A stretch of DNA of 64,000 nucleotides from a virus. Numbering within the stretch: position 1 is the stretch's first letter; the number at the start of each line of letters is the position of its first letter. The stretch is taken from the IMG/VR virus record IMGVR_UViG_3300032304_000956, positions 5,829 to 69,828 of that record; one strand, 5' to 3'. Of this stretch, positions 1,014 to 46,351 are shown one piece after another. Made by a program: the position numbers and the translations under genes. A model generated the notes under the pieces. The model was not told where the DNA came from. It did no database searches and was given only the letters and a program-made list of their open reading frames with translations.

Positions 1014-1826
1014 TTACGGATATACTCCAGATAAAGTGTTATAGGTTAATGATCCCAATGATTGTATCTTTGCAAAAGGAACAATTTCAGTAGTGGTATC
1101 TTGGGCGGTGCCTTGAACATGGAAATTCTTAAAAAACATAGTCGCTGGACTATTTAAAGATGATATTGGGGAACAGAATGTAAATCCAGCCTTCAATCCA
1201 ACTTTCTGCGTCAGATAATCTCCAATATATACAGATGTTAAAGTCTGATAAGATGAATCTGTATCATATTTAAAATCTATCGATATTGTATCTGTGTTTG
1301 CATATCTAAATCGCAACGTTTTGTAAGTTTTGGTAGATGAAAGTATTGAAAATGTTGAGTTAAGACTGGATAATGACACATTGTAAATTACATTATCTGA
1401 TCCTTCTCTTATTATGATACTGTTGCGCTTAGTTTGATCCAATCCAACTCCTCCTCTGTTTGCTGATGACAACGCGAACAATCCAGTAGTGTCAAATGCA
1501 ATACAAAGATCACCAACTGTATCATTTCCGTTATTGCCTTCTAATACAATTCGATTGTAATCTTCAGTAAGAATAAAATCACCAGATTCAGTTACTAAAA
1601 ACGCAGATGCTGGTAAATTATCGCTATATCCGAGATACTGGCCCGGAATGGCGGATGTGTTTTGCGTTCTTGATGTTAAAAACGTGCAAAATCCAGCTTC
1701 AGTTCCAGTCAACGCATATTGAAAACTCCAAGTTATATCATAGCTTGGGTTATATTCATTATTGTTATCAACAAACGCGAAGTATTTCGCATTTGCTGGT
1801 AATTTTATGTCCGCTGGGAAGCTCAT
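1014..1826 (-). CDS. virion structural protein (tail/baseplate associated)
   Basis: FLVTESGDFILTED motif typical of myovirus fibre/baseplate proteins; beta-rich; lies in the structural operon. Confidence 0.55.
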   Translation of the reverse strand: MSFPADIKLPANAKYFAFVDNNNEYNPSYDITWSFQYALTGTEAGFCTFLTSRTQNTSAIPGQYLGYSDNLPASAFLVTESGDFILTEDYNRIVLEGNNGNDTVGDLCIAFDTTGLFALSSANRGGVGLDQTKRNSIIIREGSDNVIYNVSLSSLNSTFSILSSTKTYKTLRFRYANTDTISIDFKYDTDSSYQTLTSVYIGDYLTQKVGLKAGFTFCSPISSLNSPATMFFKNFHVQGTAQDTTTEIVPFAKIQSLGSLTYNTLSGVYP

Positions 1827-2965
1827 ATAGTATCTTTAATCAATACAGTAACAGGTAAGTCATAACGAGCTAATAGATTAGCCAATGAAAAAACTTCAAC
1901 AACACAATATGCGCTGGTCGCTTCAGTAACTTTAGCAAACCAACCAAGTCTATCTGAAATTGTATCTGCGGTTACAAAAGGCATTTGTAGATTAGTAGCA
2001 GGATAAGAGAAGCGGAATGTGCCTCTTGACAATCTTGTTGCTGTTAAAGCTGTGGTATTTGATGTGAAAGTTGATAGTGGAGTAGTGAATGGTCCAACGT
2101 CTTGAATATTAAGAACACCCCATTTTTCACTCCATAGAAGACCGGAAGTTGTTTCAAATATAGTAGTAGCTGCGTTAATAGTTGACAATATGCTAGTATC
2201 AAGTCCCAAAACAATGGTGCTCGTCAATGGGTTTGTCGCCACTCCAGTTATGTTAATACCATTACCAGTTGCAGTTAGACCATTAGTGACTGTTATTGTA
2301 TTTGTGGATATGTCAACAGCTGATAATTTTGTCCAATTAAGAGTTCCATCGGCCTGTATTCTAGCAAAAGTATTATTAACTAATGTAGTCGATGGAAACG
2401 TATAAACACTTCCATTGATTCGCAGATTAGTTGGTAATGTTAGATCTGCTGCGCCTGCTGTTGTGATAACATTAACTGGGATAGTTGAAGACAGTGATAA
2501 TTTATTACTATTAGATGGATTTATGTAAATCGGCGCTGCGGCTGCACTTGGATGAATATTATCTGCTGATATTTGACCTACTCTTACAGAAGTGTTTGAA
2601 ATTAAGATACTTCCGTCACCTGCTGTATAAACTCCACCGATAACTGTCCAGTTTCCAGAAATGCTTCCCGGCAACGCAGTTAATTTGTATAGATACCCCT
2701 CATTGGTCGCAAATGCTAAATCTCCAACTTCCGAAGCTTGATAATCGGTTGCGATATTAGCCAATGTGGTTTGTTCGCCTCTGAATACATTACCAGCTGG
2801 AACTCCACCGTAAGTTGATCCATCTCCAATATATAATCTCTTGGTATCGGTGGAATACCCAAGTTCCCCGACACTTAAAACAATTTGTTTTCGTTGAGAG
2901 TCTGGACCCTGACGAACAATCAATTTCAGGAGAGTGTTTTCGTATATTTCAATAGATTTTGCCAT
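1823..2965 (-). CDS. tail fibre-like protein with Mtd_N-type N-terminal domain
   Basis: LIVRQG...VLSVGELGYSTDTKRLYIGDG matches the major tropism determinant N-terminal motif. Confidence 0.7.
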   Translation of the reverse strand: MAKSIEIYENTLLKLIVRQGPDSQRKQIVLSVGELGYSTDTKRLYIGDGSTYGGVPAGNVFRGEQTTLANIATDYQASEVGDLAFATNEGYLYKLTALPGSISGNWTVIGGVYTAGDGSILISNTSVRVGQISADNIHPSAAAAPIYINPSNSNKLSLSSTIPVNVITTAGAADLTLPTNLRINGSVYTFPSTTLVNNTFARIQADGTLNWTKLSAVDISTNTITVTNGLTATGNGINITGVATNPLTSTIVLGLDTSILSTINAATTIFETTSGLLWSEKWGVLNIQDVGPFTTPLSTFTSNTTALTATRLSRGTFRFSYPATNLQMPFVTADTISDRLGWFAKVTEATSAYCVVEVFSLANLLARYDLPVTVLIKDTI

Positions 2966-2973
2966 ACAATTAA

Positions 2974-4071
2974 TTAGTAAGCGAAGACTGGAATTGCAAA
3001 TCGTCCAACCGTTTTATCTCCAAGTCTGGTGGATGTATCCCCTTCAAATACTAGGAATCCAGCAGATGACAATTGAAGAACAGCTGAAGACAATCCACTT
3101 ACAGAAAGCGCAGTAACAACAGTTCTTGTATAACCGGGAAATGCAGTTAGCCCTTTTGTGATCACACCGTTGTAATTGAAATTGGCACCGTCAACACCTG
3201 ATAAGATATCATAAATAGATGATCTAATAGCAGCAATTCTACCATATTTATCTGACGATATAGCAGCCATTTCATTATAAAATGGGGCTCCCGCTCCCGT
3301 TTTTAAATCTAATGTGCCATTTGCATTTAAATCGAATGCGTCAGTATTGATGCCTGTAATAGCTGTTCTGATGGTAGATGTTGCGTTATCAAGTCGTAAT
3401 CCATTACCAATCCAAGAGCCTGTTAATGTAGGATAACTGAGAGTAGCAACATCCAAATTACCAGTCGCGTCTATCTTCAAGTTGGAAGCTAATTTAAGAC
3501 CCACTTTTCCTCCATTACCACCACTCAAACCATTTGTGAATGATGCGGATGCCAATTCAAATTCTGTGACACCTTGATTGTTAATTTGAAGAGCACTCAA
3601 TCCACTTAATTTGAATTGAGTAGAATCGTAGTTGACTTTAAGAATACCAGAATCAATTTTAAGACCGCCAGTTACATAAGATGGATTGATTTTAATTGGA
3701 AGTATTCCATTATCTTTTAACGTTATGTAATTGTTTGATGACAATTCAAAAAACCTATTGTCAATTCTTGGACCGACTGGATACCAAGATGATATTGAGG
3801 TGTAGGAAGAACCTGTTAATTGATAGAATTGGTTATTAGCATATACCAAATCGCCAACTTGAGAGTTTGTGCTAGTCAAAGAGGCATAACTGTTTGAAAC
3901 AGGATGCACTTTTGATCCCACTACAATACCACCAGATAGCGTTCCAGTCCCTACGAACACTCTACGAGTATCAACAGTATATCCCAACTCACCCTCATCT
4001 AAAATGACGGATTTGCGTTGAGAATCCAGTCCTCTACGAACTTTAAATTTTGTAATTTGAATACTTGACAT
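2974..4071 (-). CDS. tail fibre-like protein with Mtd_N-type N-terminal domain (paralogue)
   Basis: FKVRRG...ILDEGELGYTVDTRRVFVGTG. Confidence 0.7.
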   Translation of the reverse strand: MSSIQITKFKVRRGLDSQRKSVILDEGELGYTVDTRRVFVGTGTLSGGIVVGSKVHPVSNSYASLTSTNSQVGDLVYANNQFYQLTGSSYTSISSWYPVGPRIDNRFFELSSNNYITLKDNGILPIKINPSYVTGGLKIDSGILKVNYDSTQFKLSGLSALQINNQGVTEFELASASFTNGLSGGNGGKVGLKLASNLKIDATGNLDVATLSYPTLTGSWIGNGLRLDNATSTIRTAITGINTDAFDLNANGTLDLKTGAGAPFYNEMAAISSDKYGRIAAIRSSIYDILSGVDGANFNYNGVITKGLTAFPGYTRTVVTALSVSGLSSAVLQLSSAGFLVFEGDTSTRLGDKTVGRFAIPVFAY

Positions 4072-4074
4072 ATA

Positions 4075-4764
4075 TTAAGCGGTTCTTTTCCAAATGTAGA
4101 GACCAAATGAAGGAGGCGTGAGAGATACTGGTGATCCAAGACCGTCAGTTGCTGCTGTATTTCCTACTGTGGATGTTCTACCAAGAGTCGGCGCAGTTGT
4201 GCTACCTCTCAACAAATAAGCTTGGTCAAGTGATACAGCCGCACCGACAGCGACTGACTTACTTTCTGTGAGAGCATTTGCTGATGTCGCTTGAACTATG
4301 TCTGCATTTGAAACATAGTGATAATGCGGAGGCAGATTAGTAGAATCTAGTGACGTTTGGTATTTTCCTTGGTTACTACCAGCGACAACTGTATTTTGAT
4401 TACCTGTTGAATCTGTTCCTGTTCCAACACCAGCGACAAATCGACCATCTGCAATAATTGTCCAAGCACCACCCATGAATGTAGATGGGTTTTGATTTAC
4501 AGCAGTAAAATAAACACTTCCAACAGGGAACAACACATCAATCAACGGTTTGATATCTGTAGATGTTGGGTATGTCACATTACCAGCTGTAAAAGGACCG
4601 CTGATAACGGCCCCTTTATCTTTAGCTCCAAGAGATAGCGCGGTTTGTTTGCCATCGCCATCATAGATATCATCAACTCCTGATGAAGGAACTCCGTCGT
4701 TGGACAAAGTATGTAACAGTGATTTGTAAGTGTCAGAAATAAACTGGTTTTCCAAAGATTTCAT
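4075..4764 (-). CDS. baseplate/tail-collar protein (gp10 C-terminal-like)
   Basis: FPVGSVYFT..NP...GGAW....GRFVAGVG and C-terminal PPSFGLYIWKRTA. Confidence 0.7.
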   Translation of the reverse strand: MKSLENQFISDTYKSLLHTLSNDGVPSSGVDDIYDGDGKQTALSLGAKDKGAVISGPFTAGNVTYPTSTDIKPLIDVLFPVGSVYFTAVNQNPSTFMGGAWTIIADGRFVAGVGTGTDSTGNQNTVVAGSNQGKYQTSLDSTNLPPHYHYVSNADIVQATSANALTESKSVAVGAAVSLDQAYLLRGSTTAPTLGRTSTVGNTAATDGLGSPVSLTPPSFGLYIWKRTA

Positions 4765-4795
4765 TAGTTGTATTTAAGTTACAGATTTGATTATG

Positions 4796-6583
4796 TCAAA
4801 CTAAATTTAGTATTTTAGATTGAATTGCTACTATAGCAAGAAAAATTCTTTGAATAGAAACGATGTTTATCGTTTCGTTTCCGTTGATTAGTGTGTTTTC
4901 CAATTCAAATATTAAATTTTCGATTGGGATTGCATTGAAGCGGGGATCTGTTGATTTTTTAACCTTTGATGAATCTCTCGTTGTCCACAATAATTCATTC
5001 TTGTCGATTGATATGTTTGTTATTTTCCAGATATAATCATCAACTGTTATATTTTTAATAGATTTATAATCTTTGATCTGATAAGCAGTTGTATACAACG
5101 ATAGTAAGTCTTTAATCAGATTCAATATTCCAATATTGAACGCTATCCCTATACTATTGCCGCTACAGTTGAATTGTTTAAATTTTTTAGCCAAGTTTGT
5201 ATCTATTGTAGATGAATACATATCATACCTACCCTTAGAGGCATAAATTCGTCCTATGTTATGCACTATGGAGTATGCATGTCCATTATTTTGAACAGTA
5301 TTGAATGTTAAATTATTAAATCTATTAGATTGCATAGCATTTGAGTTATGCTTAATTTGAATTGTGTTCCAAGTATTCAATGTATCTTTCCAAAGATAAT
5401 CTCGAAGATAAAAATAACTAACATCTCCAGTAACTCCTATTGTGGCGTCAGGATTTGATATGATTCTGGATTCTATTCGTTTCTCAGTATCGACGGTGTG
5501 TGTTATCAAAAACACATCTGAATCCTCTGTTGAGAACGATAAATTATTAACAACATTTATTGTGGAAATTTGTGTTTTTTGTAAACTATTAGTAACATCT
5601 TCAACATCAAAAAAAATAAAATAATCAGAATCTCCATCATTTCCAATTAATATGATAGCGTCGTCATTTTTTCTAATGTCTAATGCTTTTATTGAACTTA
5701 TACCTAGGTCAAAATAGGTTACAGTCTGATAAATTTCATTCGAGTATCTATTTTTTATGTAAATGATATTATCTTTAACTTCAGTTCTCTTATCAGATCC
5801 CATTTTGAAAAAATTTTTAGTTTCTGGTGTTATGGTAGTTGATAAAGAATCTTTAAGAGTCAATGATCCACATATTGCGTATTTAGAAAAATCATATATT
5901 GAAATTTTATCCGTATGATAATAATACAATTCATTATTTGAATAGTCTCCATCAATTCTCAAAACATTTTCATTAGGCGATTGAGTTAGTAATTGGATAG
6001 CTTCTTTATTAACAAAGTCGCCACCTATTGAATAGGTGTTTGTATTGTTCATACAGTAGTATACAAAACTTTCATTTTCACCCATTACAAAAAATCCATC
6101 TGTAATAGTATCTAAAAACGCCCAATCAGGATTACCGGAAAAAGGATCGCTATGAGTATATACATTTTTACCAGTTGGTATGTCATCAGGAGTTCTAATA
6201 TCCAATTCAGTAGATGATAATGTATAAAAATGATTATTGTTGTAATCATATTTGATGAACTCTGGATTTAAATACACATGAGTCTTGAATATTTTTAAAT
6301 TATTATCATTTATATTTTGAAATAGATAATTTAAATTGGTTTCATCTAAAATATCAAATGCGTTTGGTGTAAAAATTGTTAAATCTTCAAAATTACCATC
6401 GAATATTGTCTCTTTCAAAAACAATTCAGTTAAAAATATTGATTTCGGAGTCAATTTCGCGGATTTGTTGGTTGGTTTCTTTTCCGAGTATGCCACACCG
6501 CTCAAGACATGAAAATATCCAGAGTAATCATTACCATTTAAGGTAAATGCATTTCCATTGTCGTATTTGAAGTAATAAATCAT
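4796..6583 (-). CDS. putative virion structural protein
   Basis: 595-aa beta-rich ORF in the baseplate operon. Confidence 0.5.
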   Translation of the reverse strand: MIYYFKYDNGNAFTLNGNDYSGYFHVLSGVAYSEKKPTNKSAKLTPKSIFLTELFLKETIFDGNFEDLTIFTPNAFDILDETNLNYLFQNINDNNLKIFKTHVYLNPEFIKYDYNNNHFYTLSSTELDIRTPDDIPTGKNVYTHSDPFSGNPDWAFLDTITDGFFVMGENESFVYYCMNNTNTYSIGGDFVNKEAIQLLTQSPNENVLRIDGDYSNNELYYYHTDKISIYDFSKYAICGSLTLKDSLSTTITPETKNFFKMGSDKRTEVKDNIIYIKNRYSNEIYQTVTYFDLGISSIKALDIRKNDDAIILIGNDGDSDYFIFFDVEDVTNSLQKTQISTINVVNNLSFSTEDSDVFLITHTVDTEKRIESRIISNPDATIGVTGDVSYFYLRDYLWKDTLNTWNTIQIKHNSNAMQSNRFNNLTFNTVQNNGHAYSIVHNIGRIYASKGRYDMYSSTIDTNLAKKFKQFNCSGNSIGIAFNIGILNLIKDLLSLYTTAYQIKDYKSIKNITVDDYIWKITNISIDKNELLWTTRDSSKVKKSTDPRFNAIPIENLIFELENTLINGNETINIVSIQRIFLAIVAIQSKILNLV

Positions 6584-8787
6584 ATGTAGTTGGTGAACTC
6601 AATTTTATTTATGGTTGTTGTAGCTGGAATATGATTTTTTATATTGGCTTCGATAGTATTTTTTAGAGAATCTAGGATTTCTGGATTTGAAATGTTCAAA
6701 TTGTCAATCGATACATTGATATAGTTACTTTTATTGGTATTCTTTTTACAGAATGATTGCAGATAGGACACATCATCAATGGAATTTCTCATACCACAAG
6801 GTAATGTCAGAACAATATCATCAATTTTTTGTTTTCCTTGCAGTATCGGAAGACTAAATGCTAAATCTTTATCAATAACATCATCCATCAAAATGATATT
6901 TGATATGTTGCGGGTAGGTAGCAACATATCTTGATCATTGTAATCAAAACGTCCATATAGGATCGTTTTATTTGCAAATTGACCAATTACTGTATTGAAT
7001 TCATACACAACTTCATTGTTCATGAAGAAGAATCCCTCACCTGTAAGACTATCATATGCAATACATACAAAGTTATCCTTCAGATATTTGAATTCGAGAG
7101 TCTTTTCAAATTTTAACACGTTGTTTGTAGAGTTATCGAATAAGTTAAGTTGAAATGTGACTGTAGTTGCTGTTTTAGTTACAGTAACTCCACCATCAAC
7201 GCTATTTCTTAAGCTTTTTATAGTCCAAGAATCACCATTGCCAACAAAGTAAAACGAAAATGTCATTTTACCAGATGTGTTTATGTTATCTTGATAATTA
7301 TACGATAAAGTATTACAAGTGATTAAGTTATTATACGAAAACGTATTCTTAAAACGCTCATATACATATTTTGTATTGGGAACAAACGTCAAATCACTTT
7401 TTTTATCAAATATTTTATTTGCCACGATACTTCCACTCAAAACAGAGTTTGAAGATATCAAATTTTCTAAAAGTTGATCATATGTTACGTCAAACACGCC
7501 TTTTGATTGCAATGCTTCTTGTTTTGATATAAAGTCTGGATAATAATATCTATCAACCCACACCTTCTCAGTTCCTGACGGAGAACCAGATAACCAAGTG
7601 CATAAAAATACTCGACCATCATCAGAGTAGTCGTTTCTTTCAAGTCGAAAGACCTTATCAGCATAAAATGGAGTTTGAAATGAGAATGATCCGCTTCTTA
7701 TGAACTTGGTATCATTGACATTCAATGCGCTGAAAGGATACATACTAGATGGTGATACAAACGTGGTTGATCCTGTTGTTATATTATATGGTTGGTTATA
7801 AAACACGTAGCTCAACGCCAATTCAGATGAATTTTCTGAATCAATTGGATTTGTAATAGCACTGTAATCACGAAATTCTTGAACAGCGTTCGTTTCAGAA
7901 GAAGATATCAGGTTCTGACCAGTTGTAAATACATCATCAACTGTAAGTTGATTCTTCAATACTAGAAATTCTTTGTATTCTGATGTATATGGCGAATGAA
8001 ACAGATAATTGTTAGTCAAATTGAAATCGCTTTTAGCATAATCAATAGAATTTGTATTGTTTTGATATGTTATGAACGATGTGTTGAGGTTAAAATCAAA
8101 TGTATATTTACGTGATCTTATAGTTTCGAATTTGTTAATCAATAATAATGACTTATCAGCACCTGATATAGCACTCAACGCTAAACTATTATTATTTTTA
8201 TTCAATATTTTATTGCCACTCGCTTCTGGTTTTATAAAGTAGATATAATTATTTGAATTATCAAATATAAAGATAAATGTTTGAGGTTGAATATCAGAAC
8301 CGTCGTCAGTTAAAAATATATCCCAAATAAAGAATATGTTGTCGTTATTATCAGATACTAGATAATATTTTCTACCCTCATAATCAAATGATATTGTGCA
8401 AGTTTGATCATCTGCAAATTCTAAAAGAAAATAACAGTCGTTGTCGAGAGTATCTGTGAATTGTTGTTCAACATACGAAATGCTTTCGGATATTAAGCTG
8501 CTTTTTTGTAGATATGAATCTCCAAATTTCAAATAGGTCAGCATTTTTTTATTGACGAACGTGTCAAAATTAATATCCAAGAACTCGTCCACCGTTTGAT
8601 CGGTTGATAAGTAAAAATTACTATATTCTTTCGTATTAAAGTCTGTAAATCCTGACAATGCAAGAGGGAAATTGAAAGAATACCCCCCTTGATACTTTCT
8701 AAACACTTGCTTGTATGCAATATCATCCGAGCTTGATTTCCAAGATTTAGATAATAAGTCAGACAATGACTTTACAATAGTTTCCAT
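6580..8787 (-). CDS. putative baseplate/virion structural protein
   Basis: 735-aa ORF with a TAAATA promoter 6 nt upstream; LS[AG] motifs. Confidence 0.5.
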   Translation of the reverse strand: METIVKSLSDLLSKSWKSSSDDIAYKQVFRKYQGGYSFNFPLALSGFTDFNTKEYSNFYLSTDQTVDEFLDINFDTFVNKKMLTYLKFGDSYLQKSSLISESISYVEQQFTDTLDNDCYFLLEFADDQTCTISFDYEGRKYYLVSDNNDNIFFIWDIFLTDDGSDIQPQTFIFIFDNSNNYIYFIKPEASGNKILNKNNNSLALSAISGADKSLLLINKFETIRSRKYTFDFNLNTSFITYQNNTNSIDYAKSDFNLTNNYLFHSPYTSEYKEFLVLKNQLTVDDVFTTGQNLISSSETNAVQEFRDYSAITNPIDSENSSELALSYVFYNQPYNITTGSTTFVSPSSMYPFSALNVNDTKFIRSGSFSFQTPFYADKVFRLERNDYSDDGRVFLCTWLSGSPSGTEKVWVDRYYYPDFISKQEALQSKGVFDVTYDQLLENLISSNSVLSGSIVANKIFDKKSDLTFVPNTKYVYERFKNTFSYNNLITCNTLSYNYQDNINTSGKMTFSFYFVGNGDSWTIKSLRNSVDGGVTVTKTATTVTFQLNLFDNSTNNVLKFEKTLEFKYLKDNFVCIAYDSLTGEGFFFMNNEVVYEFNTVIGQFANKTILYGRFDYNDQDMLLPTRNISNIILMDDVIDKDLAFSLPILQGKQKIDDIVLTLPCGMRNSIDDVSYLQSFCKKNTNKSNYINVSIDNLNISNPEILDSLKNTIEANIKNHIPATTTINKIEFTNYI

Positions 8788-8796
8788 TTGAAATAT

Positions 8797-9306
8797 TTAG
8801 GATTCGGATTCTATTAAGAAGCCACCGCGATCCACAGAAAATACAAATTGTTTTTTGTTGGTGTCTGTTGGTAGAATGTTTGTTTTAAGATGCTTCATAT
8901 CACCAACAGTTTCGAAATAGTCGCCTGTTGTGATTTTGAATGGCTGGACAATCGAACAAACCGATCCATCTATATATTGTATCAATATTTCAGCGGATAA
9001 TTGCTTGAATCTAGCTGATACAGATGGATAATATGTGTGAGATGCTACGTTTAGCAAAACAGAACTTCTAACATTATACAAAACTTCATTGAAAATACTT
9101 TCGGTTCTGTAATTTCTGTATAGTGTGTTATCAAAATACTCTATATTTCCATCGCCCCAGTTGATTGTGAGGTAAAGTGGAATGATTTGTTCAGATATTC
9201 TACTAAGAGTTAAGTTGACTGTGGTTAAATCATACAAATTCTGTTCAGCCTCAATCGCAGTTACGGCTGGTGTTGTTGTGTAGTAAGATAAATCTAAAGT
9301 ATTCAT
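8797..9306 (-). CDS. putative structural protein, PKD-like (INWGDG)
   Basis: WGDG motif; operon context. Confidence 0.45.
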   Translation of the reverse strand: MNTLDLSYYTTTPAVTAIEAEQNLYDLTTVNLTLSRISEQIIPLYLTINWGDGNIEYFDNTLYRNYRTESIFNEVLYNVRSSVLLNVASHTYYPSVSARFKQLSAEILIQYIDGSVCSIVQPFKITTGDYFETVGDMKHLKTNILPTDTNKKQFVFSVDRGGFLIESES

Positions 9307-12005
9307 ATGATAATTTCTTCGTTGATTGAAGTTACAGAAGTTGCGGATAGATAAACACCAACTGTGCTATTGTAATTAGTGTTCATTATGTTTGAATAGC
9401 TTTCAAATGTAGAGAAATACACATTATGCTTCAAGAACTCAACCGAAGGGCTTAGTATGAAATCATATTCGTGCAATGCTATCATATCATTCTGATCCTT
9501 TAACAAGAATGATATGTTGAAGATATTATTCTTCTTAGCATATGTAAATGTCGGCTTTTCCGCTTTTGTAAATCGGATATCTCCTCCAGAAACGCTGAAG
9601 AATTGTGTATTGTTGAGATAATCTGATGCTGTAACTGGGAATATCTTATGATTTCTATGAGACAATGTATCAAACTTGTATATTTCAGGATACAGTATAT
9701 AATTATTGGATGTTATAGTTGGTGTGTTTGTTTGCAACACACAGTAATATACATCAGACCCAACTTTAAATCGGTTTGATAGTTTATTAATCGGTGATGC
9801 GTTGTGTTCTATCTCATATACAACAGCAACTGGTGGATTGAATTTAGAATTTTCGTAATTTATTTTTTCAAATACAAGATAATTATCAGTTTCAATAAAC
9901 AATGTATCAAAACTCATTTCAAATTTTGAAATTGCTGATAATTGAGCAAACGCGCTTGGTGTGTATCTTGATGATAAGTAATAAAACTCGCTAGTCAAAT
10001 CATTTACAGTTTGTGTGTTGATGTTCTTGACGAATATATTACCATTTAAATCAATACGGTCATTGTAAGTGGTTGATGCTGTTACATCAACATTGTATTG
10101 ACTATTAACCAATACAGTATCATCGTAATAATACGATATTGTTGGCAATCTATATGTGAAATCAAATTCATCATTAAAATAACCACAATCGTTGCTTATA
10201 ATACCGTTTGTTCTTGTGTATTGAGCGTTCTGAGTGAAATTAGCAGAACTCAATCCTGTCGGTTTTATCAATGGACTGTAGCTGGACAGACCGCATTCCA
10301 TCAAAATACTGTAATAATAATTCAATGATCCCGGATATGATGGATCATCTGATGAAATAGGATCTAAAAATGGATCGCCTGATGATTTTGTGAAAAACCC
10401 ACCATCTCGCATCACAAGCTCATTGACGATTACATCCTCTGTAGGCGCTTTTAACTCTTGATATGGAGTGAAGTATCGGAAGAACAGCGTATTGACGCCT
10501 GAGAGGGCGCTGGCACCGCTAAATGTGCTTGTGTATGCCGACAGTCCTGACCTTTTCAGTTCATTGAATGATGATAAATTTTGAGTAGCGAAATTGAAGT
10601 TGTATCCTTGATCAAAAATATCATCATAAAAACGATAACCATTCAATTCAAGGCTTTTGATTGTTGTTGGCTCAACAACTTTAATTCCTTTTACAAAATT
10701 AATATTATTTTTGAACAACCCGTAGACGTTTCCATAAACATCTTCTTTTTGATCCTGCACAAAGCCAGAATCAAAAATGGATTCCAAGTTACAATCAAAT
10801 TTATTGATCTTTTCAGTTACATAACCGTAATATTTGGTGTCATTTTTATTAGATATCGGTTTGTTAACAGCATTTGATGATGTTAAGTTACGTTTTAAAT
10901 CCTCATCGTTGACATAAAATGTGATAATGTCCGCATTTCCCCCGAAAACATTTGGATCTGGGAAATAATATATGGAATTTGGTTCCAACTTATCGATATT
11001 GAATTGAAACGATTGATTTTTACCATCGACCAACACAATAGAGGTCTTTGAAGTTTTGAAAAATCCTATTTCATAGGTATCAATCAAAGTTCCTTGTAAA
11101 GTCGCTGGTATTGTCGGATAATTTCTGTTTAACAGACTTCTCGCCTTATTATCAGCTTCAAATAGAAGACCTGATACAAATTCAGATGTAGTTGGGCCTG
11201 TTGAAAGGTAATAGAAGTCAACTCCCATGCTTTGCTTGGTCAATTGACGCTTATTATCAAACAATTGATCAACTTCTTTGAGATTTTTAAGTTCATCACT
11301 AACGCCAGCGAAGATAGTTGAAATCAACGAAGCGTTATCCTTTAAAAAGATATCAGCACCGTAATCCAAATCCTTATTATCATAGATTTGTTCATTTGGA
11401 ACTTGATTGTAGTAGCTGCTATACACATTGTATAATTCGCTAACATCAACCTTCAATTTGGTTTTGATTTCTTCGATATCGTAATCGATAAGTGCGGTTT
11501 CTCTGTTATCTAAGAATGATATCGTCTTTTCGAAGATGGTTTTCTCCAAACCAGCGACACTGCCCATCGCTTTTTTTCGAGTTAGTTCATATTTTACATC
11601 ATCTCGCTTAGAATTGTAGTAATTTGCAATATCTACAAGCTTTTTGCTGTATAATCCGAGAACAGTATCCAAATCGTATGGATCGTTGAAGTCAATTTTC
11701 TTTAAATACTCTTGCTCTTCGATAGTTGTGTATTTCAGAGTGATATCTTTTATGAATTCTCTATACTTTTCAACTATCAACGCATCGTCATCAACTTGCT
11801 GGTTGTTCTTTTTTAAGTTCCACCTCTTCAAATACTCGGTATAATATGTTTGAAGAACTTCTGGATCAAAATTTACTGTAATTGTCTTGATGAAGACAAG
11901 GAATGACATTGGACTATTCAAGTCCAATGCATCATTCGCGTATACATTAGCATTTGTTATGCTTTTTGGGACTGGAGGATATCCATATTGCAAATTTGAA
12001 GACAT
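9303..12005 (-). CDS. large putative baseplate wedge protein
   Basis: 900-aa ORF downstream of gp6/gp25; TAAATA promoter. Confidence 0.5.
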   Translation of the reverse strand: MSSNLQYGYPPVPKSITNANVYANDALDLNSPMSFLVFIKTITVNFDPEVLQTYYTEYLKRWNLKKNNQQVDDDALIVEKYREFIKDITLKYTTIEEQEYLKKIDFNDPYDLDTVLGLYSKKLVDIANYYNSKRDDVKYELTRKKAMGSVAGLEKTIFEKTISFLDNRETALIDYDIEEIKTKLKVDVSELYNVYSSYYNQVPNEQIYDNKDLDYGADIFLKDNASLISTIFAGVSDELKNLKEVDQLFDNKRQLTKQSMGVDFYYLSTGPTTSEFVSGLLFEADNKARSLLNRNYPTIPATLQGTLIDTYEIGFFKTSKTSIVLVDGKNQSFQFNIDKLEPNSIYYFPDPNVFGGNADIITFYVNDEDLKRNLTSSNAVNKPISNKNDTKYYGYVTEKINKFDCNLESIFDSGFVQDQKEDVYGNVYGLFKNNINFVKGIKVVEPTTIKSLELNGYRFYDDIFDQGYNFNFATQNLSSFNELKRSGLSAYTSTFSGASALSGVNTLFFRYFTPYQELKAPTEDVIVNELVMRDGGFFTKSSGDPFLDPISSDDPSYPGSLNYYYSILMECGLSSYSPLIKPTGLSSANFTQNAQYTRTNGIISNDCGYFNDEFDFTYRLPTISYYYDDTVLVNSQYNVDVTASTTYNDRIDLNGNIFVKNINTQTVNDLTSEFYYLSSRYTPSAFAQLSAISKFEMSFDTLFIETDNYLVFEKINYENSKFNPPVAVVYEIEHNASPINKLSNRFKVGSDVYYCVLQTNTPTITSNNYILYPEIYKFDTLSHRNHKIFPVTASDYLNNTQFFSVSGGDIRFTKAEKPTFTYAKKNNIFNISFLLKDQNDMIALHEYDFILSPSVEFLKHNVYFSTFESYSNIMNTNYNSTVGVYLSATSVTSINEEIII

Positions 12006-12039
12006 TAACTCTATTTATTTTGCAGATCACGAAATGTAA

Positions 12040-14169
12040 TCACAAAGATAGCGATTGATAAAGAACATCCAAAAACATCGTTTCGAAAACACCGTTATCG
12101 CCCATCAAATATTGTGTAGATGGGTTAGCTGATATAATCGTGGTGTTGGTGTTGTTGAAATCGATCACATTATCAAATACTGTGCCGTCGTATTGATTGT
12201 TGAATTCAAAAAATAGATAATACTTTTCGAAATCTGATGTTTTGAACGGTGATGGTAGCACTAATGGCCAACCCCATGAATCAGAGTATGCTGACAGCTT
12301 GTAAAAGTTAGCAACTCCAGCGCACAGCGGTTGATAAGTGTTCAACTTAACATATTCGTTACCGAATTTCTCAAGTGCTACAATAGGAACGCCCGCTGTG
12401 ATTGTATATGTGGTTGTATTGATCTGGTTGCCCAAATTCACGCCAAATTTAGTCTTTTGAACTTGTCCTTTGGTGTCAAAGTTCTCTACGAACTTATTTG
12501 TAGTTCCTCTGAGCTTGTTTGTCTTGATTGATGCTAGATTTGTGATTCTTTTTATCTTTTCAGGATAATTGAAGAACCCTTTATCAAATTGAAGGTCATC
12601 AATATTCAAAAATGTAGTATCTGAGATGATAGCCTTGATATTTTCAGTATCAATGTCTCTATTGTTCATCACAAAGTTCTCAATACCTTCGTAAGTCTTA
12701 ACACCGATTGAATCGTGGTCATATGTGGTCGAACCCATTATAGATCCGATGAAATCTTCAAAAAATACAGGATTGTTTTTGATACTTTCTTGGAAAGCCA
12801 AGTCATTTAACGTTTCAGAAGCGTTAAAGTTCTCATTGACTTTGAATATGTCATAGGCTCCTTTTTCCAAAACATCAAATCGACCACTCACACCAGATAA
12901 TGAGAATGATGATAGATTTTCATTTGTTAAAGTAGCTCTAGCTGACAATTGAACGCCAGTTACAGATATTCCACTCTCTTTGAATTGAATGTAAGCTCTC
13001 GCTGATCCATTATGGTCAATATCACCCAATGTATCGTTGATAGACGACAATGTGTAGTAAGCAGAAGGCACAACACCAGTTGTCAGGATTGTTCTTTGCT
13101 TATTAGGAGCGGAAAGCACGTAATAACCATTGGAATCTTTCAAATATGTGGCAGAAAGAACAGATACAGTAAAATTGGTAATGGACAACTCGTTGAAATT
13201 TTTCAATGAGAAGTTATCCACATCTTTGATCTTTATCACAAACGGTATTTTGACATTATTGAACTTGATAGGTGATATGTTGAATGTGTCAATAGACACA
13301 CCTTCACCATCAAGACCGTTTGATGTGATTGTTAAACCAGATGCTGAGTTGTTAGGAACCACAACAACACTCAAAGAAATGTTTGTGTTGTTTAGATAGT
13401 TTTGATTGACTCCTTGAATGTAATTGTTTCTGGAATCGAACTTAAATCTCAAAACACCAGAAGAAACCGAATCGTCTTTGAAATATGTAGCGTTTACAGC
13501 AGACAATCCGACAAAGAATGCATTAAGATCGTTCTTTGAGCAGTTCACGATGGATGTTCCATCTATTCTAGCGTAAAGTTCAACTGGATTTGATATGGTA
13601 ATTGATGGAACTTCTTTGTATTGTGTCGCTGATAGATAATAATTGCTTACTGGATCAAAAATAGCGTATGTTTTTTGAAGTTGGGCGAATTTACTATCAG
13701 ATACAGCAAAGTAATCAACACTGTCGCTGCCTTCATAGACGTAGTTTATCTTGGTTACAGGCTGATACAATGGAAAATATGAAGCGACATACCACGGACC
13801 GTGTATTTTAGACTGTTGTAATGTCAAAAACTTATTAGTTGATGATAAATTTGTGAAATTGAACGTGTAAGGCACATAATCATGAATTATGATGTCTTGA
13901 GAATACACAGAAACACTTGCATTGTTGGCGCAATCGTAAACAACCAAATTTACGGTGTAAGTTCCGGGGAAATCGTAGTATTTGGAAGCGCACAGCATCT
14001 TTGACGTAGTGCCATCTCCAAAACTCCACACAACATCATGGTTAGAGTTTGGTGGTAGATCTGGAACGAATAGTAATGGCGTTGCCGACAATGCATAAGA
14101 ACTCAATACGTTCTCATTCTTGTAGTCGAATACGTCAAAATTTGAAAATGTTGTTTTAAGATTAGCCAT
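12040..14169 (-). CDS. baseplate-associated protein with N-terminal PKD domain
   Basis: WSFGDGTTS...YDFPGTYTVNLVV PKD motif; immediately follows gp6. Confidence 0.6.
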   Translation of the reverse strand: MANLKTTFSNFDVFDYKNENVLSSYALSATPLLFVPDLPPNSNHDVVWSFGDGTTSKMLCASKYYDFPGTYTVNLVVYDCANNASVSVYSQDIIIHDYVPYTFNFTNLSSTNKFLTLQQSKIHGPWYVASYFPLYQPVTKINYVYEGSDSVDYFAVSDSKFAQLQKTYAIFDPVSNYYLSATQYKEVPSITISNPVELYARIDGTSIVNCSKNDLNAFFVGLSAVNATYFKDDSVSSGVLRFKFDSRNNYIQGVNQNYLNNTNISLSVVVVPNNSASGLTITSNGLDGEGVSIDTFNISPIKFNNVKIPFVIKIKDVDNFSLKNFNELSITNFTVSVLSATYLKDSNGYYVLSAPNKQRTILTTGVVPSAYYTLSSINDTLGDIDHNGSARAYIQFKESGISVTGVQLSARATLTNENLSSFSLSGVSGRFDVLEKGAYDIFKVNENFNASETLNDLAFQESIKNNPVFFEDFIGSIMGSTTYDHDSIGVKTYEGIENFVMNNRDIDTENIKAIISDTTFLNIDDLQFDKGFFNYPEKIKRITNLASIKTNKLRGTTNKFVENFDTKGQVQKTKFGVNLGNQINTTTYTITAGVPIVALEKFGNEYVKLNTYQPLCAGVANFYKLSAYSDSWGWPLVLPSPFKTSDFEKYYLFFEFNNQYDGTVFDNVIDFNNTNTTIISANPSTQYLMGDNGVFETMFLDVLYQSLSL

Positions 14170-15973
14170 CTACGATATCTATTTTATTTATCAATGATTG
14201 AGGTGAATAAAAATAAGGGAACTTATAGAATGGCAACGTTATTGTCTGATTGACGATTTCATTGTCCAAATCTGGATAGATTGGGTTCCATGCTATGAAA
14301 GAAACGCCGTTGAAGAATATACCTTCGACTGTGTTTTCAGTTCTCAACGAGGCAACACCTTCAATACTTAAGATAGTAGAAGTTAAATCAGATAGATTCA
14401 ATGTTTGACCAAGTTGATTGTTTGAAGATTTGAAGAAATCCAAAATTGCACTGGAAACTCTTGATTTGATAGTGCTGTTGCTGATCTTATTGTTTCTTTC
14501 TTTAACAATCACTAATTTGGTTTGATTTGTAATATCAACAGATGTGTTGGTGTTACTAAAACCGATATCAAAAGCGTTGTAGATAGGATCTCTTGGAATA
14601 ACCTCATTTGTCACCATTTTTTTGTCTCTGGTGATATCTATGATCATGTTCTTGAATGTTTCGCTGATGTATGTTGGATATTGAGCATCCAATTGAATAT
14701 CAAACTTCGGAACACAGAAGACGTTGATGTTATTGAAATCGCAAGTGTCTGCAAAATTGACTTGGTTGATCAAAACTCTATTTGCTTTGTTTGGATCGAC
14801 GCAAATTCTGTAGAAGTAATTGATGTATTCTGCAATAAACACATCGTTATCAACTACCTTAACTGAATTTACGATATTTGGTAATGTTTTACCGATATAC
14901 TTTTCGTAATCTTGAGCAGTTACAAGACGATTTTGAGCAGTTATAAAGAATGGGACGTTACTTCTGATCTGATCAACTGTTTCAGCGTCGTAGATGGCTG
15001 TTGAGTTCAACGAGTTCACAAACGTCAAGCTGTTTCCAATTGTAGTTGTTACGATTTGAGAAGATGAAGATGCGGTATCGGCGTAGATTTGGTCAAACTC
15101 TGAAGATGTGTAGTTGAATATCTTGTTTCCGTTGATTACATTCTTGCTTATGACTCCTTTGAGTCCATCACTCAAGATGTAAATCACTTTGACAATATCA
15201 TTAGCGTCCAAACGCTTACTAAATACATTATTTCCAAACTTAACTTCATAATGACCATTTTCATTAAGTCTAAGTTCATATGACTTAGAAGTTGAAGTTG
15301 TCAAATACAAGTTATCAACTTCGGTGTATTCTACCCATGTGTTTGTGTTGGATTCTTTCACATACACTGAAATAGTGCCATCTGCGATGAACCTAGAATC
15401 AGTTGCTACTAAATTCTCCACAACAATAGGAAAGCTTTCAAAATCAACACCTTCTGCGGTGTAGTTTGGATATTCGTTTACCGTTCCTTGATATAGAATC
15501 AAGTTCTTGTTGATCGAATCGATAATCTCAGATGCTGTTGTGGTTTTTTCAAATGGAAAGTCTTCCAATACTGTGAATTGGATGTTGTCCACCAAGAAAT
15601 AGCTGTATTTCTTTAGAAGATAATCACCAATTGCCAAATCTGCACTGGCTGTGCAGTTGATAGGAAGAATAGATGTTTGTTTTCCAGTTGGTTTGTAACC
15701 AATCAACTTCACAATACGGTTCATGTTTTCATAAATCGTAGCTTGGTCGAATAAACTCTCAGAACTGTTTTGGTTTAAGTAAAACAACAATACGTGAGTG
15801 TAATAAGCAAGTATCTCTATTAAAAATGAAAGATTGCTACCTTCGTAGTTTTGATCTGTAAAGGTTGAATTTTCATTTAATCTATCGATTATGAAGCTTT
15901 TCAATGAAACAGCGTCGAAATTTACGTAAGCATCTTGCGGTAGGTCGTATGCTAATGTGTTGTTATCACTCAT
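14162..15973 (-). CDS. baseplate wedge subunit gp6
   Basis: FTDQNYEGSNLSFLIEILAYYTH, EVKFGNNVF, ETVDQIRSNVP...QNRLVTAQDY are T4 gp6/baseplate-J motifs. Confidence 0.9.
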   Translation of the reverse strand: MSDNNTLAYDLPQDAYVNFDAVSLKSFIIDRLNENSTFTDQNYEGSNLSFLIEILAYYTHVLLFYLNQNSSESLFDQATIYENMNRIVKLIGYKPTGKQTSILPINCTASADLAIGDYLLKKYSYFLVDNIQFTVLEDFPFEKTTTASEIIDSINKNLILYQGTVNEYPNYTAEGVDFESFPIVVENLVATDSRFIADGTISVYVKESNTNTWVEYTEVDNLYLTTSTSKSYELRLNENGHYEVKFGNNVFSKRLDANDIVKVIYILSDGLKGVISKNVINGNKIFNYTSSEFDQIYADTASSSSQIVTTTIGNSLTFVNSLNSTAIYDAETVDQIRSNVPFFITAQNRLVTAQDYEKYIGKTLPNIVNSVKVVDNDVFIAEYINYFYRICVDPNKANRVLINQVNFADTCDFNNINVFCVPKFDIQLDAQYPTYISETFKNMIIDITRDKKMVTNEVIPRDPIYNAFDIGFSNTNTSVDITNQTKLVIVKERNNKISNSTIKSRVSSAILDFFKSSNNQLGQTLNLSDLTSTILSIEGVASLRTENTVEGIFFNGVSFIAWNPIYPDLDNEIVNQTITLPFYKFPYFYSPQSLINKIDIVDG

Positions 15974-15997: not shown

Positions 15998-16483
15998 TTA
16001 CAAAATAACGTATCCTGTATTCGATAGTTGTGATTTTAACTGCAATCCATAAACATTCAGAGAAGCAACGTCGATTTGAAACTCAATATCAATTTGATTT
16101 TCATCTGGAATTCCATTTACTTGTATGTTTGATACAGTAACTCTCGGTTCCATTATAGGAAGCTTGCTTGAAATCTCAGATCGGATGATATCTGTTGTGA
16201 AAACGGTAATAGGCTGGAAAAGAAAGCGTCTAAGATCAATTCCGTATGTTGGATTGAGTAATTTTTCTCCCGGTGATGTCAAAAACGCATTTTTTATGCT
16301 GTTTTTCACAGATTCTATGTCAAACAACGCCTGAATATCCTTGACATATTCTTTTTTATGCAGTTGTTTGTTGTAACTGTATTGAGGAGAGATATCAAGA
16401 AACAAATCTTTATACAAGAATCCATTTTTAAGGGATTCTTTGGAAAGTTTATCAACTTCTAAGGATTTAATTTTGATAGCCAT
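15998..16483 (-). CDS. baseplate wedge subunit gp25
   Basis: SVKNSIKNAFLTSPGEKLLNPTYGIDLRRFLFQP...EPRV. Confidence 0.9.
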   Translation of the reverse strand: MAIKIKSLEVDKLSKESLKNGFLYKDLFLDISPQYSYNKQLHKKEYVKDIQALFDIESVKNSIKNAFLTSPGEKLLNPTYGIDLRRFLFQPITVFTTDIIRSEISSKLPIMEPRVTVSNIQVNGIPDENQIDIEFQIDVASLNVYGLQLKSQLSNTGYVIL

Positions 16484-17855: not shown

Positions 17856-17959
17856 AAGTGTGGATTTTTTACTTCGAAGAATATTTAATTTATGTTCCAT
17901 TATTTATGATTATTTTGTATAATATTTTTAACACCAATCTCTACAAGCTAAATAATAGT

Positions 17960-18763
17960 ATGGATAAAAAATATTATGTTTATGGATTGTTTGAAGAAGA
18001 TAAAGACACGCCATTTTATATAGGGAAAGGATCTGGTAGACGAATTATTAGATATTCTTTAGATGATACTAGACATGGATATATGTTAGTGTGTAAATTT
18101 AAAAATTTAAAAGCTAAAAATAAAAAATTAGATAGGAAAATATTATTTAATGATCTTTCAGAACAAGAAGCATTTGATATAGAGAAGGAACTCATCAGTA
18201 AATATGGTAAAAGATGTGATAATACTGGAATATTATTCAATGTCACAAATGGAGGAGATCAACCACCATCTGTAGAATTTATTAAAAAACTTTACGGTGA
18301 AAAAAAATACATACAGCAACAAAATAAAAGAAATCACACTTTTTATGAAAATTATTATATTAAAAATTTTGAAAATGCTTTATTAATTGAAAAGATGCTT
18401 TCAGATAACATGTTAATAAAAGATATAGCTAAAAAAATTGCAAAACATAGAAACACTATTTCAAAATGGATTAAACTTTATAATATAAAATATGATAATA
18501 CTTATAAAAAATTATTGGAGATAGATAGATTAAATTTATATAGAGGTGATAATATGAAAAAAATCGATAAAAAGTCCAAAACTTATATTGTAGTAAATCC
18601 TATGGGTGAAGAGATAAAGGTTCTAAGATTGGTCAAATTTTGTAATGATAATAATTTAGATTATAGATCACTGAGAAATACTTACAAAAGATTTTGTAAA
18701 AATGGAAAACAAAGAAAATGTAAAAAGTTTTGGATCAAAGAACAAACTGACCCATCGACTTAA
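17960..18763 (+). CDS. GIY-YIG-type free-standing homing endonuclease
   Basis: YYVYGL...PFYIGKGSGRR, NVTNGGD, then an HTH; very AT-rich, opposite strand to its neighbours, own TAAATA promoter. Confidence 0.75.
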   Translation: MDKKYYVYGLFEEDKDTPFYIGKGSGRRIIRYSLDDTRHGYMLVCKFKNLKAKNKKLDRKILFNDLSEQEAFDIEKELISKYGKRCDNTGILFNVTNGGDQPPSVEFIKKLYGEKKYIQQQNKRNHTFYENYYIKNFENALLIEKMLSDNMLIKDIAKKIAKHRNTISKWIKLYNIKYDNTYKKLLEIDRLNLYRGDNMKKIDKKSKTYIVVNPMGEEIKVLRLVKFCNDNNLDYRSLRNTYKRFCKNGKQRKCKKFWIKEQTDPST

Positions 18764-19700: not shown

Positions 19701-20339
19701 ATGTCACGTTTATCTAAACTCGATCAGGTGCTTCTTGCTGAAGCATATTCCGTTCAACTTTTTGAAGAATCCGCTCAATATATGACTATTGGCGAGCTTC
19801 AATCACGTATCCCAACTATGACCATTGAAGAAGCTCAAGTTATCGAAGAACTTTTTGGTAAGTTTGGTGATAAATTAGCACAAGCAGCTTCTGGCGCTAG
19901 TGCTCTTAAGAATGTTGCTGGAAATGCCCTTAAGCAAACTGTCGGTGGTGCCCTTAACAAGGCCAAGCAAGTCGGAGCAGGCACTTTAGCAGCTGGTAAA
20001 CAAGTTGCTAGTAATGTCAAGGAAATCGCCAGCAGCGGTGCCGTTGAAAGAGAAGCACAACAAAGCATTTTAAAGGCTGCTGAGTTGATGAATCAGGTCA
20101 CAGATTTGGTCGCTAAAGCTCAACAACAAAAACTTATCAAGTCACAGAAGCCTGTAACTGATATGTCTTTGTCTGAAATCATGAATGAATTGAAAACCGC
20201 TCAACAATCAGCCCAAACCTTTAAGCAAAATGCTAATGCAGGTGGTTTTACTGGCGGAATCGGTAAAGCTTACCAACAAGGCGCACAATCAGTTAAGCCA
20301 TCCCAACCAATGGGCATGGGAACTCGTCAAACCGCTTAA
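19701..20339 (+). CDS. Ala/Gln/Lys-rich helical protein, possible internal head protein
   Basis: 212-aa ORF with late promoter; LLAEAY near the N-terminus. Confidence 0.55.
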   Translation: MSRLSKLDQVLLAEAYSVQLFEESAQYMTIGELQSRIPTMTIEEAQVIEELFGKFGDKLAQAASGASALKNVAGNALKQTVGGALNKAKQVGAGTLAAGKQVASNVKEIASSGAVEREAQQSILKAAELMNQVTDLVAKAQQQKLIKSQKPVTDMSLSEIMNELKTAQQSAQTFKQNANAGGFTGGIGKAYQQGAQSVKPSQPMGMGTRQTA

Positions 20340-42741: not shown

Positions 42742-42801
42742 AGTGTTATTTAACCACAGAAAAAGGATTTGACAAGTGAGCATTTGGTGCTAAATGTAGG
42801 T

Positions 42802-45034: not shown

Positions 45035-45445
45035 ATGGATACAAAACAAGTCATCGTAATGCGCAAAGATCTGAACATGCGCAAAGGAAAAATGATTGCG
45101 CAAGGCAGTCACGCCAGCATGGCATTCCTCACGAAAGGAATGTATTGGGCATCTGTGAATGATGGGTTCGAATTTTCCACGGAGACAATTTACGATTGGC
45201 GAGAAGTAGAAGAAATCAATCACTGGCTTAACAATTCATTTCGTAAAATTTGTGTCTATGTGAACAGCGAAGAAGAACTTCGTGAATTACATCAGAAGGC
45301 ACTTGACAATGGTTTGATCTCTCATATGATCACTGACAACGGAGCAACCGAATTCAATGGAGTTCCTACAATGACATGCTGCGCAATCGGACCACATTTT
45401 TGTCATAAATTTGAAGGGTTGACTGATCATTTACCACTACTATAA
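45035..45445 (+). CDS. pth2: peptidyl-tRNA hydrolase, Pth2 type
   Basis: KQVIVMRKDLNMRKGKMIAQGSHA, KICV, DNGATEF, AIGP, TDHLPLL. Confidence 0.9.
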   Translation: MDTKQVIVMRKDLNMRKGKMIAQGSHASMAFLTKGMYWASVNDGFEFSTETIYDWREVEEINHWLNNSFRKICVYVNSEEELRELHQKALDNGLISHMITDNGATEFNGVPTMTCCAIGPHFCHKFEGLTDHLPLL

Positions 45446-46309: not shown

Positions 46310-46323
46310 ACATGTATTTACAC

Positions 46324-46351
46324 TTGACAATCCAAAAATCCATGATATTAT
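46324..46351 (+). promoter_or_regulatory. sigma70-like early promoter
   Basis: TTGACA-16 nt-TATTAT with an extended TG. Confidence 0.55.

Follow-up and report, generated by a model that had tools for sequence, protein, structure and literature searches.

An L-S-[A/G/S] tripeptide enriched in the outer virion proteins of a clade of uncultured T4-like phages: a candidate sequon for serine modification

The outer baseplate and fibre proteins encoded in a 64,000-nucleotide stretch of viral DNA (hereafter the window; bases 5829-69828 of the 69,828-base contig IMGVR_UViG_3300032304_000956), together with those of related phages, carry the tripeptide L-S-[A/G/S], or LS[AGS], at five to ten times the level expected by chance. 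The source phage is an uncultured, distant T4-like myovirus, and the completeness of its contig is 34% according to CheckV. The enrichment of the motif, its residue specificity, its restriction to the outer virion, its clade-wide spread and its partial conservation with gains of sites are established. A signal that is short and sharply specific, can change its position and is confined to the surface and to one lineage resembles a modification sequon. We therefore tentatively favour the possibility that LS[AGS] is a sequon at which Ser is modified after translation, with O-glycosylation as the leading candidate.

Enrichment of LS[AGS] in outer virion proteins

A first-pass annotation of the window had noticed the tripeptide by eye in several outer proteins, and its counts were exact: 12 in a 709-amino-acid (aa) protein with a PKD domain, eight in a 365-aa fibre and eight in a 900-aa protein, all of the latter in the C-terminal half as it had stated (residues 477-886). 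In the 709-aa protein, 11 of the 12 sites fall within residues 22-426. The terminase, the clamp loader and the baseplate protein gp6 were said to have none, which is the case, and the further occurrences announced for the sheath and a 416-aa repeat fibre were found (3 vs 1.18 expected and 4 vs 2.02, respectively).

Across the nine open reading frames (ORFs) of positions 1014-14169 (4352 aa), LS[AGS] occurs 41 times, against 7.38 ± 2.64 in shuffles of the whole proteins; none of 5000 shuffles reached 41, and the maximum was 20. Shuffling within blocks of 100 or 40 residues gave 7.5 and 8.2 occurrences (maximum 18 in 3000 shuffles each), and these two kinds of shuffle rule out overall or local composition as the cause. 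The other 66 ORFs of the window (15,517 aa) hold 21 occurrences against 17.05, a number reached by 1007 of 5000 shuffles. The contrast between outer and other proteins that the annotation had expected from composition-shuffled sequences is therefore present.

An unbiased scan of tripeptides placed LSA (14 vs 1.78), LSS (16 vs 3.52) and LSG (11 vs 2.16) in the first three ranks, and LS is the most enriched dipeptide (67 vs 35.9). After LS, one of A, G or S follows in 61% of cases vs 20% by composition, and before S[AGS] an L stands in 36% vs 8.5%; three conditional tests each gave p < 1e-12. The best p value of this blind scan was 7e-9 here vs about 1e-4 in T4 gp7-gp12 with wac and in three cyanophage baseplate proteins. 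LS[AGS] is not enriched in T4 gp7-wac (2 vs 3.93) or in a 4225-aa gp7-like protein of a cyanophage (0 vs 4.97), and two outgroup loci with about 25% gp6 identity (L033, L035) have 1-3 per protein vs 0.8-2.1. These controls show that the motif is not common to the outer proteins of T4-like phages at large.

At the motif, each of the six Leu and six Ser codons appears, at frequencies that match the background, and the signal must therefore lie at the level of the protein. A motif in the DNA is ruled out by this codon diversity, and the preference at the third position tracks the size of the residue and not the first base of its codon. We also rejected a lipobox-like L-[AS]-[GAS]-C, as Cys follows the motif at none of the 41 window sites. 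Known sequons are not enriched in the outer proteins, neither N-X-S/T (66 vs 70.3) nor [DE]-x-N-x-[ST] (5 vs 7.7), and the same is true of the Bacteroidetes sequon D-[ST]-[AILVMT] (24 vs 20.5).

The motif had been described as recurring in otherwise unrelated outer virion proteins and as not explained by gene duplication, and BLAST and hhalign bear this out. The sole similarity that BLAST detected among the nine proteins joins the Mtd_N N-termini of the 365-aa and 380-aa fibres, and four beta-sandwich domains of the 709-aa family are mutually unrelated (hhalign probability at most 1.3%). Gene duplication and cryptic domain homology are thus ruled out as the source of the motif for these nine proteins.

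It is very improbable that composition, cryptic repeats, signals in the DNA or the calling of ORFs produced the enrichment as an artefact. The outer proteins are indeed richer in Ser and small residues, and one fibre has real LSAG-containing repeats; against such an origin stand the shuffles, the diverse codons and the absence of homology among proteins or domains, as well as the permutations of the motif with the same composition, which occur only 8-22 times, and the replication of the signal in independent relatives. The fibre in question, the one of 416 aa, contains a genuine internal repeat (...F(I/L)GLSAG..A(T/S)(D/N)AS.S) from which three of its four LSAG derive, and it is therefore not counted as independent evidence.

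Residue specificity, spread and evolution of the sites

The residue preferences were determined on a set of 37 homologous proteins (23,793 aa) encoded on related contigs and made non-redundant at 70% identity, in which LS[AGS] occurs 200 times vs 35.4 expected. At the first position L is enriched 5.6x, followed by M (1.8x), I (1.7x), V (1.6x) and F (1.2x), and at the second position S reaches 5.6x and T 1.35x. The third position favours A (10.7x), then G (4.8x), C (4.7x), S (4.5x) and T (2.0x), with P depleted (0.15x) and the others at about 1x, including LSD, LSE and LSV. The flanks show weak preferences only, acidic residues being rarer upstream. A strand pattern in which hydrophobic and polar residues alternate would yield a much less sharp motif, and a generic beta-strand pattern does not fit because Leu is favoured over Ile/Val and Ser over Thr.

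Besides being the internal negative, gp6 was the marker used to find relatives, at 35 loci. The protein encoded after gp6 has 3-15 LS[AGS] in 17 homologues, including some that are 31-33% identical, vs about 1-2 expected. In the complete relative G005 (206,590 bases, 232 ORFs) there are 119 LS[AGS] vs 63.1; the 11 ORFs with p < 0.01 lie nearly all in the baseplate and fibre block, and the remainder holds 65 vs 55.0. A distant relative, G007, whose terminase and sheath are 41% and 43% identical, has proteins with 18 vs 2.37, 15 vs 2.73 and 7 vs 0.48. Within the 14-member family of the 900-aa protein, six motifs lie in the conserved N-terminal half (identity 0.48-0.56) and 52 in the variable C-terminal half (0.30-0.36).

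The motif thus characterises a large clade of uncultured T4-like aquatic phages. Close cultured relatives were not found in a phage collection, either by megablast of the region or by tblastn of the 709-aa protein, and gp6 is less than 30% identical to cyanophage gp6. Family assignments are correspondingly few: the nine ORFs of positions 1014-14169 match only PKD, Gp10_C and Mtd_N in Pfam, none of the ten outer-module proteins falls into a PHROGs family, and a Pfam scan of seven other enriched proteins of G005 and the window returned one weak gp15-like match.

Sites in the family of the 709-aa protein are in part shared and in part new. The 150 LS[AGS] (20.9 expected) are spread over 49 alignment columns, of which 21 are singletons, 28 are common to at least two sequences and 10 to at least five; for fifteen control motifs with comparable expected counts, the sites fall in 5-30 columns, 2-13 of them singletons. 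When two sequences are 30-60% identical, LS[AGS] is kept entire in 34% of cases, vs 6-21% for LT[AGS], [IVFM]S[AGS] and [^L]S[AGS], and the motif Ser is kept in 56% vs 40% for Ser in general. Sites are thus conserved above background and also gained at new positions. In homologues without the motif, the Leu column is hydrophobic in 58% and the Ser column in 14%, against a background of 38%, which points to Leu as a buried anchor beside an exposed Ser. In the sheath, the motifs fall outside the conserved core (residues 576-788).

An AlphaFold2 model of the 709-aa protein is all-beta, with a predicted local distance difference test (pLDDT) score of 64.7 overall and mostly above 75 over residues 1-436; a PKD_4 match has an E-value of 2.1e-8. 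According to the model, about the first 436 residues form an array of immunoglobulin (Ig)-like or PKD beta-sandwich domains, followed by a conserved C-terminal core. Five of the 12 sites lie in strands of the model, three at strand starts and four in loops or edges, and these mixed contexts therefore do not fit one structural micro-motif. Over the clade set, spacings of 5 residues (10 vs 2.2) and of 10-12 residues (16 vs 6.3) are over-represented. A double motif, N-x-LSS-(Y/F)-x-LS-(A/G), with LS five residues apart, recurs in non-homologous domains; it is found at residues 20-30 and 417-427 of the 709-aa protein and 475-490 of the 900-aa protein, with NVLSSYALSAT and ENLSSFSLSGV as 11-residue examples.

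These data bear directly on the main rival to a modification sequon, a lineage-specific structural or folding motif that is never modified. Leu would be anchored in the core, Ser would cap or hydrogen-bond and the small residue would pack, a combination repeatedly favoured in the beta-sandwich and fibre folds of the clade. We judge it somewhat unlikely. The all-beta, Ig-like nature of the motif-rich part of the 709-aa protein agrees with it, as do the mostly hydrophobic Leu column, the small third position, the ten columns conserved in at least five of the 17 homologues (with L625-S626 invariant in the core), the spacing peaks, the recurrent double motif and the three LSAG in the true repeat of the 416-aa fibre. 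However, the beta-rich, Ig-like outer proteins of T4 and the cyanophage lack the enrichment, the domains that carry the sites are not homologous, and strands, strand starts and loops are used alike. The 21 singleton columns also exceed those of all fifteen control motifs. Finally, the enrichment with Leu is 3-5 fold that with Ile, Val or Phe, and with Ser it is 4 fold that with Thr; beta-strand propensities run in the opposite direction.

A glycosyltransferase, its mucin-like neighbour and nucleotide-sugar genes

In this phage and in the relatives G001, G002, G003 and G005, the fibre module ends with the gene of a GT2-family glycosyltransferase. Its match to PF00535 (44.1-46.3 bits vs a cut-off of 23.3; E 2.8e-11) identifies a GT-A catalytic domain, and the motifs D34-N-N-P and D86-x-H88 are invariant in eight orthologues. 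It has no hydrophobic segment (maximum Kyte-Doolittle mean over 19 residues 0.96) and is predicted to be soluble. Orthologues with 67-69% identity occupy the same place in four of the five large relatives, including cases in which the module lies apart from gp6. In the fifth, G004, the contig ends inside the fibre module, and we dropped it as uninformative for a case of motif without GT2. At 51 loci found with a GT2 profile, the ORFs on the fibre side of the gene hold 1098 LS[AGS] vs 271.5; those on the other side hold 221 vs 138.1, an excess that comes from loci with fibres on that side. In most of these loci GT2 is flanked by genes rich in LS[AGS].

More than 2200 homologues of this GT2 occur in metagenomes, some from Tara, with no informative name, and 407 stretches of IMG/VR encode it. 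The family profile has no match among PDB sequences at E <= 1. A low-confidence model of the enzyme (pLDDT 56.2) best matches RmlT with TDP-rhamnose (8bz8, E 1.6e-6) and polypeptide N-acetylgalactosaminyltransferases (pp-GalNAc-Ts; 2d7i, 8v9q) in the PDB, with root-mean-square deviations of 12-18 Å, and 20-82% of the members of related Atlas clusters carry Glyco_transf_7C; we take all three resemblances as leads and not as membership. Several relatives have more than one GT2-family match (eight in G005, five in G007, four in G002), and six further matches of G005 are clustered at 186-193 kilobases (kb; locus L053). The contig yielded no GT1-family (PF00534) match.

Between the last fibre gene and GT2 lies an ORF for a mucin-like protein, which contains poly-(TS) and poly-T tracts and has conserved Cys residues in its C-terminal part. 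It has counterparts in G001, G002, G003 and G005 (151552-151899 in the latter); the family is 104-157 aa long, ends in ...L(N/G)(F/Y) and in many relatives lies 32-33 bases upstream of GT2. At other loci a protein of 676-2058 aa encoded next to GT2 ends in the mucin-like stretch, and a Ser/Thr/Pro-rich ORF or C-terminal domain stands beside GT2 in most of the 51 loci. A phage-encoded pair of mucin-type substrate and enzyme is plausible, and no description of one was found in the literature searched.

The same neighbour enters a further alternative, in which LS[AGS] would be read by a non-enzymatic partner, such as an assembly chaperone, or serve as the docking site of the mucin-like or another decoration protein. 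The confinement of the motif to late-assembling peripheral proteins would suit such a partner, as would the presence in the same module of a conserved mucin-like protein with a Cys-containing C-terminus. Three residues, however, offer little binding energy, and up to 15 sites per protein at shifting positions are hard to reconcile with docking; we consider this alternative improbable.

The first-pass annotation had named phage-made NDP-rhamnose as the sugar donor. An RmlA-like protein (TIGR01207, E 1.7e-70, 237 bits vs an equivalog cut-off of 361) and an RmlB-like protein (TIGR01181, E 7e-101, 337.5 bits vs 365) are encoded in the window. The RmlD-like protein, a short-chain dehydrogenase/reductase (SDR) of uncertain specificity, matches TIGR01214 over residues 15-169 only, at 58.4 bits, far under the cut-off of 224. 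Homologues of RmlA and the RmlD-like protein are present in G005 and at 10-11 of the gp6 loci, and the RmlB-like gene is conserved as well. RmlC (PF00908) was matched in none of three records, namely this contig and the genomes of G005 and G010, both 100% complete by CheckV, and a 182-aa ORF at 42235-42783 matches nothing in Pfam or NCBIfam. The L-rhamnose route is consequently unsupported. From these family matches the phage is predicted to encode a route to a deoxythymidine diphosphate (dTDP)-6-deoxyhexose, which is probably other than L-rhamnose unless RmlC of the host is used.

The motif could also be a sequon for a modification of Ser other than a sugar (phosphorylation, acylation, or a phospho- or nucleotide-linked group), by an enzyme of phage or host. 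The sequence evidence is the same and nothing in it specifies a sugar, nor is the fibre-module GT2 tied to the motif. On the other hand, genes for glycosyltransferases and nucleotide sugars are conspicuously abundant in these phages, and no kinase or acyltransferase candidate was seen, although none was searched for. We give such a modification only a small chance.

The genes discussed are listed in Table 1; genes for the sheath and a tape measure protein are also present in the window, and no capsid gene was recognised in the contig. Three further ORFs stand out by their family matches or orientation. One of 567 aa (32102-33805, plus strand), between the sheath and putative tube genes, matches PHROG families of homing/HNH endonucleases (E 1.9e-96) and sits in the stretch of lowest GC content of the window (0.308, 32-36 kb). 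A GIY-YIG/NUMOD endonuclease gene (45440-46330, minus strand) is opposite in strand to its neighbours, and a 301-aa ORF with a weak transposase-type helix-turn-helix match (17858-18763, plus strand) lies on the opposite strand within the baseplate region; the latter two look like mobile insertions. Where the window has one Gp10_C-domain gene, the relative G004 has four tandem paralogues (L147, 131409-134912).

Table 1. Genes of the window considered in this study, with observed and expected numbers of LS[AGS].
Feature	Position	Strand	LS[AGS] observed vs expected	Remarks
GT2-family glycosyltransferase, 270 aa	1-606	-		PF00535; continues past the window start to genome position 5622
Mucin-like ORF, 123 aa	639-1010	-	0	Ser/Thr/Pro-rich
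Distal fibre protein, 270 aa	1014-1826	-	4 vs 0.62	
Fibre, 380 aa	1823-2965	-	2 vs 0.87	Mtd_N N-terminus
Fibre, 365 aa	2974-4071	-	8 vs 1.23	Mtd_N N-terminus (PF18454, E 1.6e-7)
Gp10_C-domain protein, 229 aa	4075-4764	-	0 vs 0.60	PF21939, E 1.8e-19
Module protein, 595 aa	4796-6583	-	2 vs 0.56	
Baseplate or fibre protein, 735 aa	6580-8787	-	4 vs 1.14	
Module ORF, 169 aa	8797-9306	-	1 vs 0.25	Kept in relatives
Baseplate or fibre protein, 900 aa	9303-12005	-	8 vs 1.10	Without family match
709-aa protein	12040-14169	-	12 vs 1.09	Directly after gp6; positional equivalent of T4 gp7
gp6-like inner baseplate wedge protein	14162-15973	-	0	Gp6-like_1st, 23.3 bits, under the cut-off of 27
gp25-like wedge protein	15998-16483	-		
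Clamp loader	20336-21247		0	
RmlA-like glucose-1-phosphate thymidylyltransferase	21244-21987	-		NTP_transferase (PF00483), E 5.3e-46
RmlD-like SDR	21980-22864	-		RmlD_sub_bind, E 3.4e-15
Repeat fibre, 416 aa	23084-24334	+	4 vs 2.02	Ser/Gly/Ala-rich
266-aa ORF	24761-25561		3 vs 0.19	
Terminase	27301-29073		0	
RmlB-like dTDP-glucose 4,6-dehydratase	42769-43791	+		

A modification sequon and its place among known systems

Several observations weigh against a modification sequon. Ten alignment columns of the 709-aa family are widely conserved, and the invariant L625-S626 in its conserved core resembles a structural residue pair. About half of the motifs lie within predicted beta-strands, where the access of an enzyme to the folded protein would be limited. 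Proteins outside the virion do not avoid the motif (21 vs 17 in the window, 65 vs 55 in G005), although selection against stray sites might be expected if a promiscuous enzyme worked in the cytoplasm. The relatives share ancestry, and counts across them are not independent events. Another phage, G006, carries a GT2 orthologue (60% identity) and a mucin-like region, but its LS[AGS] number 35 vs 34.3; as it shares 3 of 62 ORFs with the clade, it is an unrelated phage. Lastly, the mucin-like protein, which has no LS[AGS], is more probably the substrate of GT2 than the LS[AGS] proteins are, and none of the enzymes of the phage can be linked to the motif.

The first-pass annotation had gone further than the motif and proposed a convergently selected site of modification. 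A protein-level signal under selection in unrelated outer proteins stands; the modification itself, together with the exposure of the Ser, the enzymatic reading of the motif and the chemistry of the sugar, is what we infer from the sequences. Its attribution of Ser O-glycosylation to the phage glycosyltransferase fits with a GT2 gene that ends the fibre module, and is weakened by the mucin-like neighbour as the likelier substrate and by the unenriched G006.

In the reading that we favour, L-S-[A>G,S,C] is a short linear motif under positive selection on the exposed periphery of the baseplate, on the fibres and on the outer domains of the sheath. Its Ser would be modified inside the infected cell, and this may be an O-glycosylation by one of the several cytoplasmic glycosyltransferases of the phage, with a phage-made dTDP-6-deoxyhexose as the donor. 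In the fullest form of this proposal, the phages of this globally abundant clade would use cytoplasmic glycosyltransferases of their own to attach O-linked 6-deoxyhexose glycans at a new Ser-specific sequon, L-S-[A/G/S/C], covering the fibres, the outer sheath and the periphery of the baseplate, and would in addition possess a separately glycosylated, mucin-like, fibre-associated protein, the whole amounting to a phage glycocalyx with a readable code. Taken together, we regard that combination as doubtful.

At the sequence level there is a likeness with the N-X-S/T sequons on envelope glycoproteins of eukaryotic viruses, which are exposed, partly conserved and partly gained or lost between relatives, forming a glycan shield. 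In both cases a three-residue motif is enriched on exposed virion proteins; the acceptor there is Asn and the enzyme an oligosaccharyltransferase of the endoplasmic reticulum, whereas here we propose Ser and a cytoplasmic enzyme of phage or host. Bacterial oligosaccharyltransferases act in the periplasm, out of reach of assembling phage proteins. Bacterial O-glycosylation resembles our proposal in its Ser/Thr O-linkage on surface proteins, and some systems prefer a Ser next to Ala. For PglL, PglS, TfpO and TfpM, Table 1 and text passages of the 2025 review PMC12645811 give as sites a Ser at the C-terminus, a Ser inside pilin or disordered regions rich in Ala, and they state that no sequon is known for the Maf flagellin glycosyltransferases; none of the sites listed there is L-S-[AGS].

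Virion proteins of mycobacteriophages are reported to be O-glycosylated by phage glycosyltransferases (Freeman et al., 2023, Cell Host Microbe, as described in PMC12619734). These tailed phages have their own glycosyltransferase genes beside structural genes, as GT2 stands beside the fibre genes here; their glycans are reported to lie at the C-termini of capsid and tail tube subunits, whereas the candidate LS[AGS] sites are internal, lie in baseplate and fibre proteins and are known from sequence only. Virus-encoded nucleotide-sugar pathways and glycosyltransferases have also been proposed to decorate the surface fibrils of Megavirinae and the chloroviruses (PMC10117803 and PMC9614988). These are eukaryotic viruses with different proteins, and the abstracts of the two papers describe no LS[AGS]-type sequon.

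Two further systems come to mind from structural matches. The Ig-like N-terminal 436 residues of the 709-aa protein have RB49 Hoc as their best structural match (3shs, E 4.5e-9); this is a resemblance of fold only, with template modelling scores of 0.12-0.23 over the multi-domain model, and T4 Hoc has no LS[AGS] (0.19 expected). The mucin-like neighbour and the model matches of GT2 recall mucin-type O-glycosylation and, for GT2 only, RmlT of Listeria; the GT2 of this phage is without a lectin domain and has only 270 aa. A search of full-text literature returned no LS[AGS]-type sequon and no T4-like phage with glycosylated fibres.

So strong a signal lends itself to a direct test without culturing the phage. 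Should LS[AGS] prove structural, it would be an unusual three-residue element repeatedly selected in unrelated folds of one lineage. Should it prove a modification sequon, no O-modification code defined by sequence would precede it on the virions of tailed phages, modified sites could be predicted from metagenomic sequence alone, and a compact Ser-specific tag would become available for glyco-engineering. Shielding by glycans, or adhesion through them, would then be indicated for a clade represented by hundreds of contigs.

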